Below are positions 95-7,092 of a DNA stretch of 10,314 nt, in pieces. This stretch comes from an uncultured archaeon (lineage in GTDB: Archaea > Asgardarchaeota > Lokiarchaeia > Sigyniarchaeales > SOKP01). Position numbers and translations under genes: made by a program. Numbering within the stretch: the first letter of the stretch is position 1; each line of letters begins with the position of its first letter. The notes below the pieces were generated by a model, which saw only the letters and a program-made list of their open reading frames with translations, made no database searches and had not been told where the DNA came from. The stretch spans positions 1 through 10,314 of the forward strand of contig CAYLZE010000145.1 in the NCBI GenBank assembly GCA_964388035.1, in the 5' to 3' direction.

Positions 95-1321
95 ATGAAA
101 TTTTTAAAAGCCATTCAAGTATCAGAATTGAAAAATATTTTAAATTCAATTCCAAAGATTTCATTAAGTGAAGAAATTTTACCATTAAGCGAATCCTATA
201 ACCGTGTTCTCAGCAGGGACATGGAAAGCCCTATTGATGTCCCTCATTTTCGAAAGTCTCGAATGGATGGGTTTGCAGTGATTGCGGAAGATACTTTTGG
301 GGCAGAAGAAGATAATTTGATAGAATTAAACTTATTAGAGGTAATCAATGCTGGAGACGCTCCTAAGAGAGAATTGCAAAGAGGAAAATGCTCGTATGTT
401 GCCACGGGTGCCGCAATCCCCGAAAATGCTAATGCCGTCGTGATGGTTGAATTTACGGAACAACTGGGAGAAAAAATTAAGATAAGCAAAGCTGTTGCTC
501 CAGGAACTTATATCGTTAACATTGGACACGACGTATCCAAGGGACAAGTTATATGTAAAAAAAATACTTTTATTGATTTACCTACCTTGGGAATTCTTGC
601 TTCTTGTGGAATTGATAATGTACCGGTGTTTTCCAAACCCGTTGTTACATTAATGAGCACGGGAAATGAATTAGTATCGCATGATATCAAAGAACTGACA
701 ATAGGAAAGATTTATGATATTAATTCCATAATGCTCCAAAAGGCAATTGAGAACACGGGGGCTAAAATAAATTTCTTGGGGATAATTAAAGACGATTACG
801 ATGAGCTTAAAAAACAAGTTGAAACCTCCTTACTAACCAGTAATATTGTTATCCTTTCTGGAGGTACTTCGAAAGGGGAAGGAGATTTAATTCCTCAAAT
901 TTTAGATAGTATGGAAAATGTGGAATTACTTGTCCATGGAGTAAGAATTAAACCGGGAAAGCCTTTAATCTTTTGTCAATTAGCACATAAAATTCTATTT
1001 GTTTTGCCGGGATATCCCACCTCCGCATTGAGCTGTTTCTTCGTCTTCATTGAAAATTTTCTCAGGAGAATGTCTTGTTATCCTCTAAAAGAGGCAAATT
1101 CCGTTATTTTGGAAGTTGGGGAGCGAATATATAGCGAGCCCGGAAGGCATGAGTTTAAAACTGTTAGTATCCAGGATTTTGATGGTATAAAAAAAATTAT
1201 TCCAATAAAAACGGGGTCCGAGGCAATCAGTACCATGTTTAATGCTGATGGGTATATCGAAATAGAAGAACTAGAAACGATTATCGAAAAAGGAGATAAA
1301 AGAAGGGTCTATTTCTTTTAG
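95..1321 (+). CDS. moeA: Molybdopterin molybdenum/tungsten transferase MoeA (gephyrin E-domain family), paralog 1
   Basis: 408 aa with MoeA motifs P-x-F-x-x-S-x-MDGFAV, VATGAAIP, AVVMVE, STGNEL, IYDIN, SGGTSKGEGD, HGVRIKPGKP, LPGYPTSA and ADGYIEI. Confidence 0.95.
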   Translation: MKFLKAIQVSELKNILNSIPKISLSEEILPLSESYNRVLSRDMESPIDVPHFRKSRMDGFAVIAEDTFGAEEDNLIELNLLEVINAGDAPKRELQRGKCSYVATGAAIPENANAVVMVEFTEQLGEKIKISKAVAPGTYIVNIGHDVSKGQVICKKNTFIDLPTLGILASCGIDNVPVFSKPVVTLMSTGNELVSHDIKELTIGKIYDINSIMLQKAIENTGAKINFLGIIKDDYDELKKQVETSLLTSNIVILSGGTSKGEGDLIPQILDSMENVELLVHGVRIKPGKPLIFCQLAHKILFVLPGYPTSALSCFFVFIENFLRRMSCYPLKEANSVILEVGERIYSEPGRHEFKTVSIQDFDGIKKIIPIKTGSEAISTMFNADGYIEIEELETIIEKGDKRRVYFF

Positions 1322-1337
1322 TAAAGGCATGATTAAT

Positions 1338-1345
1338 TTTATAAA
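1338..1345 (+). promoter_or_regulatory. Putative archaeal TATA box (TTTATAAA) for an internal, probably leaderless moaB promoter
   Basis: TTTATAAA ends 24 nt upstream of the ATG at 1370 and there is no Shine-Dalgarno. The AT-rich background lowers specificity. Confidence 0.4.
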
Positions 1346-1369
1346 ATATAAAAATAACCAAGAAAAAAC

Positions 1370-1906
1370 ATGAAAGTACATGAATTACACAAGAGCAAGG
1401 GATCCGAGAAACAGGATCTTGCTCTAATTATAGTAAGCACCAGTCGGTTTGAAGAGCAAGAAAAAGGGTTTCCAAGCTCTGATAAAACAATTCCAGCTGT
1501 GAAAGAATTATTGATAAATTATCCTAGTATAAACCTTAAGTTTACATCGATTATTCCGGATTCGAAAGAGCACTTAAAGGAAATTTTCGATGTTCTTATC
1601 AATCGAGAAGATTTGGATGCTTTAATTTTTAGTGGAGGAACGGGGCTGAGTCCTACGGATGTTACTTACGAAAGTATCACTCCGCATTTGCAAAAAGAAA
1701 TACAAGGTTTTGGGGAGTTATTTAGATATCTCTCATTTAAAGAAATTGGATCTTCAGCGATGTTATCAAGAGCAGCTGGCGGAATTCATGAAGAAAAGGC
1801 TATATTCATCCTCCCCGGATCTCCCAATGCCGTGAAATTAGCGCTGAATGAATTAATTCTGCCCGAGTTAGGGCATATTGCATATTTAATCCAAAAAGAA
1901 AAGTGA
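1370..1906 (+). CDS. moaB: MoaB/MogA family molybdopterin adenylyltransferase (gephyrin G-domain family)
   Basis: 178 aa with IIVSTSR, IIPD, SGGTGLSPTDVT, GFGELFR, AMLSRAAGG and LPGSPNAV, all typical of MoaB/Mog. It lies between two moeA genes. Confidence 0.93.
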   Translation: MKVHELHKSKGSEKQDLALIIVSTSRFEEQEKGFPSSDKTIPAVKELLINYPSINLKFTSIIPDSKEHLKEIFDVLINREDLDALIFSGGTGLSPTDVTYESITPHLQKEIQGFGELFRYLSFKEIGSSAMLSRAAGGIHEEKAIFILPGSPNAVKLALNELILPELGHIAYLIQKEK

Positions 1907-1913
1907 TAAAAAG

Positions 1914-3161
1914 ATGGAACGCTTGAGAAAAATTGGTTTTGCAAAATTAACATCGGTGGTTGAGGCTCAAGAAAAATTATTCTCATCCCTTAAGCCATTA
2001 AATTCTGAAAAAGTTGAAATAAGAGAATCTTTGAATCGAATAATTGCAGAAGATATTTATAGTGAAATTAATATCCCCCCTTTCGATAGAGCCGCAATGG
2101 ATGGATATGCGATCAGAGCTGAAAATTCCTTTGGAGCATCCCCCAAGAACCCTAAGCATTTAGCACTAACGGGAATGATTGAGATTGGAGAATATAAAGA
2201 ATTGAAACTTGACAAGGGACAAGCGATACGAATATCTACTGGAGCAGCAATTCCGAAAGGGGCGGATTCAGTTATTAAAATAGAAGATACTGAACTAGAG
2301 GATGAAAAACTAACGTTATATACGGCTTTGACTCCCGGGCAGAATGTCTCAAGAAGCGGGGAAGATATTTTAAAAGGAAAGCATGTTTTGAAAAAAGGAA
2401 CGGAGTTAAAAGCGGAGCATATCGCCCTTTTGGCTTCCTTGGGAATCAAAATTATTCCCGTGATGAAAAAGCCACGAGTGATGGTACATGCTACCGGAAA
2501 TGAATTGATCGAGGTTGGGGAAAAATTAGGACCAAATACCATTTATAATTCGAATTCGCTCATGATCGCAAATCTAGTGCGATTATATGGGGGCGAGGTT
2601 GTCGGAGAATCCTCTCTAAAAGATAATAAAGAATTGATTAAGAAAGCATTATTAGATGCAGTAAAAATATCTGATCTTGTCATATTTACGGGAGGTACTT
2701 CGGTAGGAACTCGAGATTTCTTACCGGAAGTGATCCAAGAAACGGGTAGTATTCTAACTCATGGGGTTGCAATGAGGCCTGGTTCTCCGATTTTAATGGC
2801 TCTTGTAGAAAATACCTTAGTTTTTTGCTTACCCGGTACCCCCGTGGCAGCATATGCAGGCTTTCTTAAATTTGCCGGTCCCGCAATTCGGAAAATGATG
2901 TCGAGTGTAAATGCCGATCCCAGAATAGAAATTAAAGCAGTAATGAATAATGACGTTCCGGTATCTAAAATGGGCTTTGTTAATCTACTTCGTGTTGAGC
3001 TTCAAATCCTTGACGATAAAATCATTGCAATCCCTGTCAAATTAAAAGGTTCTGGAGTGATTAGTTCCTTGACTGATTCTGATGGCATCGTGGAAATCCC
3101 TCCCTCTCAAGAAGGATTGAAAAAGGGAGATCTGGTCCCAATAAAATTGCATCCAAAATGA
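1914..3161 (+). CDS. moeA: Molybdopterin molybdenum/tungsten transferase MoeA, paralog 2
   Basis: 415 aa with PPFDRAAMDGYA, ISTGAAIP, ATGNEL, IYNSNS, TGGTSVG, HGVAMRPGSP, LPGTPVA and GSGVISSLTDSDG. It starts 7 nt after the moaB stop. Confidence 0.95.
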   Translation: MERLRKIGFAKLTSVVEAQEKLFSSLKPLNSEKVEIRESLNRIIAEDIYSEINIPPFDRAAMDGYAIRAENSFGASPKNPKHLALTGMIEIGEYKELKLDKGQAIRISTGAAIPKGADSVIKIEDTELEDEKLTLYTALTPGQNVSRSGEDILKGKHVLKKGTELKAEHIALLASLGIKIIPVMKKPRVMVHATGNELIEVGEKLGPNTIYNSNSLMIANLVRLYGGEVVGESSLKDNKELIKKALLDAVKISDLVIFTGGTSVGTRDFLPEVIQETGSILTHGVAMRPGSPILMALVENTLVFCLPGTPVAAYAGFLKFAGPAIRKMMSSVNADPRIEIKAVMNNDVPVSKMGFVNLLRVELQILDDKIIAIPVKLKGSGVISSLTDSDGIVEIPPSQEGLKKGDLVPIKLHPK

Positions 3162-3262: not shown

Positions 3263-4888
3263 TTAACTGGTTAAGGTCTTATTAGATAATTGTAATATAG
3301 CTTCAATTTTCCTCGCGATTACCTTTAAAATTGCGCGGTTGATTGCTCTTAAGAATGCTTTTTGAAAAGCTTTTTGAAATAAAGTGTTTGCTTGTGATGA
3401 TTCATCAATAGGATTTTCATTAATTTTTTGCGCATAGATGTCAGTATTTGAGCTGCTTCTTCCATCTTCCCAAACGATGATAGCACCATGTGATCCATCG
3501 CTGCATAATTCAGGGTAATATTGGTTATCATCTGCATTACAGATAAGAGTACCATTCTTTTGCCATTCAATATTTCCACTTGCATTAATTTTTTGCGCAT
3601 ATATATCATCATTTCCATTCCTTAAATCGTACCATGTAATTATAGCTCCTCCTGCATTATCCTTACAGATCTGTGGACTATTTTGAGCATTACTGGCGTT
3701 ACAAATTACCGTGCCGTTAGTTCTCCATTTTATTACTCCGCTAGCATTAATGTTTTGAGCATATATATCTACATCATACCAAGTGATGATAGCCCCTCCA
3801 GAATCATCAGTGCAAAGTTGTGGTTCGTTTTGATCAGAATCCCTATTACAAATTAAAGTACCATTATCAACCCATTTTGTGATGCCATTTAGATCAATCT
3901 TTTGGGCATAGATATCGCGGTCGGTTACTATTCTCTCATCATACCAGGTAATAATTGCTCCTCCCGCGCCATCACTGCATATTTGTGGACTCCATTGGTC
4001 ATTATCTTCATTGCATATAATTGTACCATTATCAACCCATTTTGGAACCCCATTCGTATCAATTCTTTGCGCGTATATATCTTGCGCGAAAAATACTAAA
4101 CCGCTTCTGGCATCATACCAGGTAATAATCGCACCTCCCGCGTCATCACTGCAAATTTGTGGGTCATATTGTCCATAATCAGCATTACATACAATTATAC
4201 CGTTTGAATCCCATTTGGGAATCCCATTTGTATCAACTTTCTGAACGAAAATATCCATTTCATCATATCTATCATCATGCCAAGCTATTATCGCACCTCC
4301 AGAGCCATCACTGCATATTTGTGGATCTAGTTGATCTGCCATATCGTTACATATAATTGTTCCATTATCACCCCATTTAGGAGAGCCATTTGCACTAATT
4401 TTCTGCACGCCAATGTCATAATTCGTTCCACTCCTCATATCCTGCCATACAATGATTGCTCCTCCCGCCCCATCGCTACAAATTTGAGGCTTATCTTGAG
4501 TATTTTCTCTATTACATACGATAATGCCATTACTACCCCATAATAAATCTCCATCAGCATCCACTCTCTGTGCGTAAATATCAGTATCATACCAAGTAAT
4601 AATTGCTCCTCCCGCACCATCACAGCATATTTGAGGTTGTCTCTGGTTTCCCGCAGCATTGCTAATTAGTTTACCATTAACATTCCATTGGGGAATTTGG
4701 GAGGGTTGTAAACCTTTAGAATTCAAGTTTTTTTCATTAACTATCGGTATTGGTAAAATGTTTCCTTGCTCGTTGATCCCGAATGTTTCATAACTAGAAT
4801 AAGTGTTTAAAAGCAATATTGAGACCCCAGTTATTGTTAAGAATATTAAGAGGAATAGCACAAAAATTTTGTTTGTTTTAAATCTCAT
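3263..4888 (-). CDS. Secreted or N-terminally anchored repeat protein, predicted 8-bladed beta-propeller surface glycoprotein
   Basis: Basic N-terminus plus a hydrophobic stretch (IFVLFLLIFLTITGVSILLL). Eight ~50-58 aa repeats Q-x-x-PQICSDGAGGAIITWYD...DIYAQKI-x-x-x-G-x-x-x-W-x-x-NGT-x-ICN. Ten N-x-S/T sequons. Confidence 0.85.
   Translation of the reverse strand: MRFKTNKIFVLFLLIFLTITGVSILLLNTYSSYETFGINEQGNILPIPIVNEKNLNSKGLQPSQIPQWNVNGKLISNAAGNQRQPQICCDGAGGAIITWYDTDIYAQRVDADGDLLWGSNGIIVCNRENTQDKPQICSDGAGGAIIVWQDMRSGTNYDIGVQKISANGSPKWGDNGTIICNDMADQLDPQICSDGSGGAIIAWHDDRYDEMDIFVQKVDTNGIPKWDSNGIIVCNADYGQYDPQICSDDAGGAIITWYDARSGLVFFAQDIYAQRIDTNGVPKWVDNGTIICNEDNDQWSPQICSDGAGGAIITWYDERIVTDRDIYAQKIDLNGITKWVDNGTLICNRDSDQNEPQLCTDDSGGAIITWYDVDIYAQNINASGVIKWRTNGTVICNASNAQNSPQICKDNAGGAIITWYDLRNGNDDIYAQKINASGNIEWQKNGTLICNADDNQYYPELCSDGSHGAIIVWEDGRSSSNTDIYAQKINENPIDESSQANTLFQKAFQKAFLRAINRAILKVIARKIEAILQLSNKTLTS
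3420..4690 (-). repeat. Intragenic tandem repeat array (8 units of about 150-175 bp)
   Basis: Protein repeats are also visible at DNA level: identical 22-mer gtaccattatcaacccattttg at 3858-3879 and 4023-4044, and identical 19-mer catcataccaggtaataat at 3937-3955 and 4111-4129. Confidence 0.9.
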
Positions 4889-5113: not shown

Positions 5114-5983
5114 GTGACGACGACGGAGTTAATTAAAGAGATTCAGCAAAAGGATGACATCATTGGAAGGGAAGATGAGTTAAAGAAGATAATTTTAGCC
5201 CATTCTGTAAGAAAAAATATTTTAATTGAAGGAGAAGTGGGAGTTGGGAAAACAACTCTTGCCCAAGCCGTAGCTTCCTATTTTGATTCACAATTTTATC
5301 GAATTGATTGTAGTGAGGAAACTTTAACCCATAATCTTATTGGATTTTTTGATCCCCCCTTGGTAATTTCAAAAGGGTATATCGAAGAATCTTACGTATA
5401 TGGCCCTCTTCCTTTAGCCATGATAAATGGAGGATGTTTATTTATCAACGAAATCAATAGAATGCCCGAAAGCACCCAAAATCTTCTCTTGACCTCATTA
5501 GATGAAAGGATCACGGAAATTCCCAAATTGAAAACGATTAAAGCTAAAGAAAGTTTTTTTGTAATTGCAACCTTAAATCCTTCTGCTCACGTGGGAGTAA
5601 CTGCTTTAGGAGAAGCTCTTAAAGACAGATTTATTTGGATTTATTTGGATTATCAATCTCCGGAAGAAGAGGTTGAAATTATTAAGAAGGAATTAAGAGG
5701 GGAAAATTCAAGCTCGGAAAATATCGTTATAATGTCCCAAAGAATCGTTCAAAAAACGCGGGAACATACTTCCATACGAAGAGGAAGTTCCATCAGAGGG
5801 GGCATAGATTTAGCATCGATCATGACTAAATATGATAATGATAAAAGTACGAAAAATTGGGTAGAAGCAGGCATCATGGCATTATACAATAAAATTGAAT
5901 TAGAGGATGGTCTCACTCGGTCAAAAAAAGAAATTTTAACTGATATCATATTAGCTTGTCTTAATGAATCGGATTTTCAATAA
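5114..5983 (+). CDS. moxR: MoxR-family AAA+ ATPase
   Basis: GTG start; IIGREDE; Walker A GEVGVGKT; LIGFFDP; GPL-x-x-AM; Walker B-like LFINEINR; sensor-1 ATLNP; arginine finger ALKDRF; lid motif GSSIRGGID. Followed by a VWA gene, as is typical for MoxR. Confidence 0.92.
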   Translation: MTTTELIKEIQQKDDIIGREDELKKIILAHSVRKNILIEGEVGVGKTTLAQAVASYFDSQFYRIDCSEETLTHNLIGFFDPPLVISKGYIEESYVYGPLPLAMINGGCLFINEINRMPESTQNLLLTSLDERITEIPKLKTIKAKESFFVIATLNPSAHVGVTALGEALKDRFIWIYLDYQSPEEEVEIIKKELRGENSSSENIVIMSQRIVQKTREHTSIRRGSSIRGGIDLASIMTKYDNDKSTKNWVEAGIMALYNKIELEDGLTRSKKEILTDIILACLNESDFQ

Positions 5984-6018
5984 TCGATGATTTCCCTGAA
6001 GAAACATCCCAAGGGGAG
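5971..6018 (+). other. Candidate programmed -1 ribosomal frameshift cassette (G_GAU_UUU plus downstream hairpin/pseudoknot)
   Basis: Heptamer 5971-5977 is phased in the ATPase frame. The -1 frame is open from 5968 into the VWA ORF. Stem gatg-a-tttc (5986-5994) pairs with gaaacatc (6001-6008), and loop cct (5995-5997) can pair with agg (6012-6014). Confidence 0.45.
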
Positions 6019-6021
6019 GAG

Positions 6022-7092
6022 ATGCGACTAAGAGTAGATTTCGTGGATAAACCACCGGATAAAGAAATCTTGCGGTTTGAAATCATTCGAAAGAAAAAAA
6101 AGAAACCCGACTATTATTTTCATTTAGCTAATTCTCTGGATTACAAGCAAATTAAAAACATGACTTTTTTGGCTATTGAGAATGATAATTTAGAAGCAAT
6201 AATGGGTTTACTGAAATCAAATGTCTATGCTGCAACGGATGCTTTAGATACTCAAGAAGGAGTAAAATTCTTCGCTGAGAAGTCTAATGAAACTAATTTA
6301 ATCATGCCCGAATTATACTTTTTCATAAGAAGACCCATATCTCAAAAATATAAGGGTATCTTTAGAAGACTTGCTCGCCAGAGCATTTTAAAAACATCTC
6401 TTAAGATATCAAGTCGGGGAATTAAGGGAACTTTTAAAAAAACGGTTCCTCATTATCAAATCGGTGATCCCGACTTTGATTTAGATGAAACTATTCAGCA
6501 TAATCCTTTGAAAATCCATGAAAAAATTTTATCCTACAATGATATTTACGGGATTAAAAGAAAACGGCAAAAGAGAAAGGTAGTAATGATACTCGATACC
6601 AGCGGAAGCATGTATGGAAGATTACTTTTAAATGCTGCTTTAACCACTTCTGTTTTAGCATATAACATGGAAAAAGAAAACTACGCGATTGTTTTGTTTA
6701 ATTCAACTGCAATGTTAATGAAGAGAATTAAAGAGACAAAGGATATCACCAAAATAGTGGATGACATTTTAGACTCAGAAGCAGCAGGGTTCACTAATAT
6801 CTCTATTGGACTCGAAAAAGGATTGAATGAATTGAATACCTTAAGATCGAATACTAAGCACCAATTTGGAATTCTCATAACTGATGGAGTATATAATCGG
6901 GGTGAGGATCCGGTGAAAATTGCAAAAAAGTATCCCAAGCTCCATGTTATTGGTATGCCAGCAGATAATGATGCAGATAGAGGAATTGAAACCTGTAGAA
7001 AAATTGCAAATGCCGGAAGGGGCAAATTTCTAGCAGTAAATGATTATAGGGAAATCCCTAGAGCATTAATAAAATTACTAGTTCAAATATAA
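6022..7092 (+). CDS. VWA (von Willebrand factor A) domain protein with intact MIDAS, CoxE/ChlD-C-terminal-like partner of the MoxR ATPase
   Basis: Pre-VWA motif DFDLDETI; MIDAS DTSGS (DxSxS), GFTNI (T) and LITDG (D); C-terminal IANAGRGKF. The reading frame extends upstream without a stop to 5968. Confidence 0.9.
   Translation: MRLRVDFVDKPPDKEILRFEIIRKKKKKPDYYFHLANSLDYKQIKNMTFLAIENDNLEAIMGLLKSNVYAATDALDTQEGVKFFAEKSNETNLIMPELYFFIRRPISQKYKGIFRRLARQSILKTSLKISSRGIKGTFKKTVPHYQIGDPDFDLDETIQHNPLKIHEKILSYNDIYGIKRKRQKRKVVMILDTSGSMYGRLLLNAALTTSVLAYNMEKENYAIVLFNSTAMLMKRIKETKDITKIVDDILDSEAAGFTNISIGLEKGLNELNTLRSNTKHQFGILITDGVYNRGEDPVKIAKKYPKLHVIGMPADNDADRGIETCRKIANAGRGKFLAVNDYREIPRALIKLLVQI

Follow-up and report, generated by a model that had tools for sequence, protein, structure and literature searches.

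Within a 10,314-nucleotide stretch of DNA from an uncultured Asgard archaeon of the class Lokiarchaeia (contig CAYLZE010000145.1 of assembly GCA_964388035.1; the whole stretch is called the window below), the gene of a MoxR-class AAA+ ATPase is followed by an open reading frame for a protein with a VWA domain. We consider it very likely that the two frames are one recoded gene, in which a ribosomal -1 frameshift would yield both a 289-residue ATPase and a fusion of about 659 residues. The reading is built on sequence comparison: across orthologous loci the frame relation, the slip motif, the lack of start codons, the fused relatives and a constraint at the nucleotide level are all borne out. 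The features of the locus are the following:

5114-5983, + strand: open reading frame of the MoxR-class AAA+ ATPase, 289 residues, the zero-frame short product (open reading frame list, Pfam, PDB sequence matches)
5965-5967, + strand: TGA a little 5' of the slip site, after which the -1 frame is open (sequence)
5971-5977, + strand: slippery heptamer G_GAU_UUU, with GAU in the P site and UUU in the A site (sequence, ortholog counts)
5977-7092, + strand: -1 frame after the slip, 371 codons and a stop, for acidic linker, helical domain and VWA/MIDAS domain (translation)
5981-5983, + strand: zero-frame stop TAA, one codon past the slip codon (sequence)
5983-6023, + strand: candidate stimulatory hairpin of the kink-turn type, 5 nt past the heptamer (fold, family alignment, codon counts)
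6022-6024, + strand: ATG called as the VWA start by open reading frame finders, most likely an internal methionine codon (ortholog alignment)
6595-6609, + strand: MIDAS motif DTSGS of the VWA domain (alignment; Pfam VWA, 9.8e-9)

The ribosomal nature of the shift, its efficiency, the role of the hairpin and the assembly of the products are what we infer, in the following form. Most ribosomes would terminate at the TAA at 5981-5983 and release the 289-residue ATPase, while a fraction would slip back one base on G_GAU_UUU at 5971-5977, probably with the aid of the stop close by and of a kink-turn-like hairpin starting 5 nt downstream. The slipped ribosomes would read on in the -1 frame and produce ATPase, acidic linker, helical domain and VWA-MIDAS domain as one chain of about 659 residues. 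One message would in this way provide free ATPase and a covalently tethered VWA adaptor in a fixed ratio, and the two forms would probably assemble into mixed hexamers with one or a few VWA arms.

The ATPase ends in TCG GAT TTT CAA TAA, and the heptamer is phased X_XXY_YYZ in its frame. The VWA frame (6022-7092 when counted from the ATG) is at -1 relative to the ATPase and is open from 5968. From the ATG at 6022 open reading frame finders call a 356-residue VWA protein; when read from further upstream, the -1 frame runs into this ATG as IGF SIIDDFPEETSQGEE MRLRVDF, and the predicted length of the fusion is 288 + 371 = 659 residues. The window is AT-rich (about 34% G+C), but the 38-nt apparent spacer contains 19/38 G+C by hand count, compared with 25-30% in the other spacers of the window. 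Both the frameshift, with its 289-residue and ~659-residue (288+371) products, and the absence of extreme AT-richness in the spacer had been proposed in a first-pass annotation made from the letters of the window alone. Its end of the ATPase, its position and phase of the heptamer and its -1 frame from 5968 are all confirmed, the remark on the spacer agrees with our count, and the proposed products are supported by the frame relation, by the constraint on motif and synonymous sites, and by fused relatives.

Taken alone, an 18-codon open stretch next to a heptamer could be a matter of chance. Among 135 orthologous loci, which represent about 24 Asgard (Promethearchaeota) families, 127 have retained both the -1 relation and the U-run, and it is this conservation that lifts the locus beyond chance. 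The loci come from three samples. The class sample consists of 44 orthologous loci out of 61 genomes of the same class that were searched, with 37-83% identity in the VWA part. In the phylum-wide sample the family is present in 182 of 301 genomes, and 47 further loci from further families were examined. The third sample adds 44 close relatives from the family of the window itself. A -1 VWA frame that overlaps the ATPase stop is found in 44/44 loci at the class level, and the additional family loci are likewise at -1 in 44/44 cases. Among the 47 phylum-wide loci, 39 are at -1, four at +1 (TTT TTT CGG/CGA) and four are in-frame fusions. The frame relation, whose conservation had been named by the first-pass annotation as a check on its proposal, is thus kept across about 20 GTDB families and in independent assemblies.

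Between the slip site and a conserved VWA motif there are 28-32 codons, and the differences between loci are always whole codons. The linker varies in multiples of three, and therefore the "spacer" evolves as coding sequence. In the family alignments conservation of the -1 peptide sets in at the slip site, with S[IV]IDDFS; upstream of this site the ortholog alignments contain no conserved peptide in the -1 frame. At the four +1 loci (L072-L074 and L089, from the Asgard families f32 and f23) the junction reads TTT TTT CGG/CGA GCC, which suggests either that a TTG start overlaps or that a +1 shift, from UUU to UUC, takes place ahead of a rare Arg codon.

The slip motif was tallied over the 83 -1 loci of the class and phylum samples. 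Of these, 81 carry a phased NNU_UUU or U_UUU_UUC, which at 80 of the 81 loci is followed, after 0-1 codon, by the zero-frame stop. GGATTTT (30), AAATTTT (15), TTTTTTC (10) and AGATTTT (8) are the most frequent forms, and GGATTTT is also found at 40/44 of the further family loci. GGAUUUU is the -1 site used by dianthoviruses and umbraviruses. In 67/81 loci the P-site codon begins with the same base that precedes it (X1 = X2). Further, the codon before GAT is NNG in 50 of 59 distinct family junctions, by means of seven different codons, at a background of 0.12. On slipping, the A site would re-pair perfectly (UUU to UUU) and the P site partially (GAU to GGA). Three loci with 53-62% G+C keep GAT TTT TTC, although TTT makes up only 4-21% of their Phe codons. 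That these GC-rich loci keep it against their codon usage shows that selection acts on the nucleotides and not only on the Asp-Phe residues. One -1 locus, L044 of family f5, is without a U-run and reads GAA AAC CCT TGA, with a TTG overlapping the stop; here either C_CCU slips beside the stop or stop-start coupling operates.

An exhaustive protein search returned in-frame relatives of 560-711 residues, with an N-terminal AAA_5 and a C-terminal VWA domain. The 711-residue relative P0032 is 49% identical to the ATPase up to ...SNSDF and then continues in frame with the VWA part; its junction DNA is GAT TTT TTT CGT. Relatives fused in frame, which had been anticipated as a further check, therefore exist and are joined at the same ...SDF residues. 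The contig of P0032 also bears an ESCRT-II-type gene. The in-frame fused loci L046 (3860-3890) and L090 (family f25) keep a T7 run, as GAT TTT TTT CGT and ACT TTT TTT CGA. At L046 the -1 frame stops two codons past this run, and a dnaX-like shift to a short form is conceivable. By eye, no GATGA is seen near the junction of the four in-frame fused loci.

Constraint at the nucleotide level extends downstream of the heptamer, where about 26 nt of the family alignment hardly vary at any of the three codon positions; the mean third-position entropy upstream of the site is 1.2 bits. Behind the site the codons ATC (56/56, background fraction 0.18), TTC (55/55, background 0.25), the first GAG (56/56, background 0.20) and the second GAG (57/57, background 0.20) are fixed, while the Glu codons that neighbour the fixed GAGs follow background usage. 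Synonymous-site constraint, another check named at the outset, is thus present at the motif and in the surrounding nucleotides.

The sequence of the hairpin fits a kink-turn of the C/D-box type, AUC / GAU / GA / UUUCCCU ... AGGGGAG / GA / GAU. In the kink-turn model its parts are:

5983-5985 with 6021-6023, + strand: canonical (C) stem
5986-5988, + strand: bulge GAU
5989-5990 with 6019-6020, + strand: tandem G.A
5991-5997 with 6012-6018, + strand: noncanonical (NC) stem, also in the minimum free energy fold
5998-6011, + strand: hairpin loop

In this model the C and G of the fixed rare codons pair with each other (5985 with 6021, and 5994 with 6015). On the family alignment the model has 6 compensatory cells, a number reached by 0 of 500 shuffles. 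In other lineages 27 of 56 loci have a GA-hairpin-GAU-GA arrangement that begins 8 nt past the site, compared with 1.6 expected; the topology differs and the consensus is the same. A first register of the hairpin, with a UCGA/UUGA outer helix, was dropped in favour of the kink-turn register, which alone accounts for the third-position G fixed at 6021. No Rfam family is significant over the junction. The Rfam matches to 5917-6082 (+ strand) are three sub-threshold models of C/D-box small nucleolar RNAs at chance level (E 5.5-9.5), which is the family type whose kink-turn the junction resembles, and one short CRISPR-repeat match (E 1.4).

We put forward tentatively, as something possible and rather doubtful, that the stimulator forms a true kink-turn to which L7Ae or a protein of the L7Ae family binds, so that a trans-acting protein would set both the frameshift and the ratio of ATPase forms. 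The binding of L7Ae to the candidate kink-turn is a conjecture; if true, the Asgard archaea would share a conserved -1 frameshift that is gated by a protein.

Several observations weigh against a ribosomal -1 frameshift. The re-pairing of GAU to GGA in the P site is imperfect, and this part of the motif varies by lineage (AGATTTT, TGATTTT). The heptamer was proposed from the window as a unit, and of this unit only the U_UUU or UUY next to the stop is constant, while the P-site half is not. The free energy of the hairpin is unexceptional (z = -0.41 for the window), the folding z-scores of the family are about 0, those of whole segments are mostly insignificant (mean -0.7 over 81 loci), and the C stem is invariant, hence without covariation. 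RNAalifold on the family junction gives a weak consensus of -3.3 kcal/mol. Further, the length of the run tracks the frame in other lineages, with T6 at -1 and T7 in frame, and the +1 loci carry T8 (one locus) or T6 (three loci), a pattern that would also suit slippage of the RNA polymerase. Finally, the window, unlike its relatives, has an ATG preceded by GGAGG, and some independent initiation is possible.

This ATG is the starting point for a reading as two ordinary genes, in which VWA synthesis is initiated at 6022, with the purine tract GGGGAGGAG as a Shine-Dalgarno sequence, and no fusion is made. Such an arrangement agrees with the GGAGG and with the 356-residue protein called by open reading frame finders, and it is very unlikely in view of the orthologues. 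The ATG is the sole ATG at that codon among the 59 distinct family junctions and aligns with K, N, S or R in orthologues. No ATG, GTG or TTG is found in the first 25 codons of 39 of these 59 junctions, and 37 of 81 loci lack all three between the point where the -1 frame opens and the 25th codon past the slip site. Only 2 nt separate the GGAGG from the ATG, and the tract consists of Glu codons; a comparable tract is present in none of the nine other open reading frames of the window. In addition, the 18 codons upstream of the ATG are conserved as a -1 frame peptide, and the ATG itself falls within the proposed C stem. The start at 6022, which the first-pass annotation had itself named as the rival, is thus neither conserved nor shared. 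In this genome a little free VWA protein may come from initiation there, but this cannot be how the family as a whole is expressed. Public gene calls of the VWA protein are often truncated at the N-terminus, and P0001, for example, begins at query residue 86.

Three other explanations do without a ribosomal frameshift. In transcriptional slippage the RNA polymerase would insert one U at the T-run, and some messages would encode the fusion in frame. The T-run is a constant feature, as this would require, and the run lengths given above fit as well. However, appreciable transcriptional slippage needs 7 or more bases and the run is only T4 here and in most loci. A phased run, a base under selection ahead of the P-site codon (NNG) and a structure 5 nt further downstream also point to a ribosomal signal and not to a transcriptional one. 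Overall we give slippage very little credence: it is unlikely on T4 and possible in the lineages with T6-T8, and the poly-A sites of chlD genes are also compatible with realignment (PMC3711429). A separate VWA protein could also arise by termination and reinitiation, or from a non-canonical start (ATA or ATC) near the stop. The stop does overlap the -1 frame, and five loci (e.g. L047) have a TTG or ATG overlapping a TGA stop, as L044 has its TTG; a plausible start near the stop is nevertheless absent in most loci. Reinitiation would also leave unexplained why a phased U-run is kept against codon usage and why fused relatives are joined at the same residue, and we regard it as very improbable. 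Lastly, the arrangement could be an assembly indel in a simple fused gene, fused forms being known from some lineages, or a pseudogene. The chance of this is negligible: an assembly artefact is excluded because many independent assemblies share the arrangement, the 127 loci at -1 belong to about 20 families, and both parts are intact and conserved.

The ATPase matches Pfam AAA_5 (2.4e-18, 66.9 bits) and AAA_3 (1.1e-17), and its best PDB sequence matches are midasin AAA domains, MoxR (2r44), NorQ and CbbQ. The midasin match (E 2.1e-46 over three AAA stretches) is well ahead of the bacterial MoxR, NorQ and CbbQ. The first-pass annotation had called the two products ChlI-like and ChlD-like, and this can be retained as an analogy, not as membership: they are an AAA_5/MoxR ATPase and a NorD-like VWA protein. 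Against PF01078 (ChlI-type) the ATPase scores 24 bits with no stretch passing on its own, and its PDB sequence matches include no ChlI/BchI chain. The BchD-ChlD/cobaltochelatase models TIGR02031 and TIGR02442 give 25.5 bits at a cut-off of 499.55 and 27.9 bits at a cut-off of 779. No match to CobN/ChlH (PF02514) was found in the 96.7%-complete genome, in a search to which control genomes respond.

The VWA part has a complete MIDAS motif (DxSxS...T...D): D210, S212, G213, S214 and D306 are invariant in the ortholog alignment and T276 nearly so. An AlphaFold model of the -1 product has a predicted local distance difference test score (pLDDT) of 86.7, with residues 1-25 disordered (the acidic linker), 30-148 helical and 155-373 forming the VWA domain. 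By fold the VWA part matches BatB, the MIDAS domain of MDN1 and NorD in NorQD complexes, the last of which ranks with its best matches; a PDB sequence search with the same part gave no match.

Two other loci of the same genome, L139 (586-3150) and L140 (345-2837) on contigs C11 and C39, encode proteins of 830-854 residues with a C-terminal VWA/CoxE-type domain. They were considered as AAA-VWA fusions and ruled out, since Pfam finds VWA but no AAA domain in them. By size and layout they give the impression of CbbO/NorD-type partners, and similar open frames of 830-870 residues recur in most related genomes.

Directly upstream, at 95-3161 of the window, a MoCF-type gene for the synthesis of molybdopterin cofactor lies between two MoeA genes. 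Between these molybdopterin genes and the ATPase lies a 541-residue open reading frame on the - strand (3263-4888), without a Pfam match. By Pfam the archaeal genes of the window are the two MoeA genes, the MoCF gene and Nre, and the closest relatives of the VWA gene are from metagenome-assembled genomes labelled Promethearchaeota/Promethearchaeia (Asgard archaea).

If the locus is recoded as we propose, its annotation throughout the Asgard archaea as an ATPase and a truncated or start-less VWA protein would miss the true product. Few cellular -1 frameshifts are known in archaea, and this well-conserved one would join them as the first that we could find for a MoxR-VWA system, with a signal unlike the poly-A sites of chlD. 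It also suggests a way to provide a MoxR hexamer with a fixed small number of covalent VWA/MIDAS adaptors. A midasin-like layout of AAA_5, acidic linker and MIDAS in the closest archaeal relatives of eukaryotes is of evolutionary interest, and cultured Asgard archaea as well as heterologous reporters make the recoding directly testable. Among the titles and abstracts that full-text searches of the literature brought up, on MoxR-VWA, archaeal AAA+/VWA, Asgard and kink-turn/L7Ae frameshifting, there is no description of this system.

The nearest parallel for the conjectured part of L7Ae is the selenocysteine insertion sequence (SECIS), an mRNA kink-turn that is bound by SBP2, a protein of the L7Ae family. 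The likeness would be that a kink-turn in the message directs recoding through an L7Ae-type protein; the difference is that SECIS recodes UGA as selenocysteine and involves no frameshifting. The slip site itself has its counterpart in RNA viruses. Heptamer and phase are identical, but the viral sites act on eukaryotic ribosomes and use long-range or pseudoknot stimulators. In the literature G_GAU_UUU is described as a -1 slippery motif of RNA viruses (PMC11050907), and it occurs 13 times in a paper on umbraviruses (PMC13098196).

The closest known system is that of the chlD genes of Mg/Co chelatases that use frameshifting, and it is only for chlD genes that we found the principle of a short and a long AAA+-VWA form published. 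At these loci a short AAA+ protein and a long AAA+-linker-VWA protein have been shown experimentally to be made by frameshifting, at tested sites that are poly-A (A7-A11) and that reach an efficiency of up to 63% in reporters in E. coli (Antonov et al. 2013, PMC3711429; Kuznetsov et al. 2022, PMC9227772). As here, one locus provides both forms after a mostly -1 frameshift, the loci are annotated as two adjacent genes, and in-frame fused relatives exist. Such chlD genes are found in bacteria and archaea, and some of their carriers are without the large subunit. The present family differs in being AAA_5/MoxR, in a genome with no CobN/ChlH match and in Asgard hosts, and in using a U4-U6 motif beside the stop with a kink-turn-like hairpin in place of poly-A.

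In NorQ-NorD, CbbQ-CbbO and RavA-ViaA, a hexameric ATPase of the AAA_5 type is likewise accompanied by an adjacent VWA/MIDAS protein. There the partners are separate and dock non-covalently; in contrast to such MoxR/VWA pairs, the VWA partner described here appears to be made only as a recoded C-terminal extension of the ATPase.

In E. coli dnaX, programmed -1 frameshifting sets the ratio of tau and gamma, two AAA+ forms that share the N-terminal ATPase module. The shift there gives the shorter form and here the longer one, and the fused lineage with T7 in frame would be dnaX-like, provided that a shift occurs there. Midasin (Rea1/MDN1), finally, also combines AAA_5 modules, an acidic linker and a C-terminal MIDAS in one chain, a likeness seen in sequence and fold matches; it differs in having six fused AAA modules and about 4,700-4,900 residues, and in reaching this layout with no recoding.

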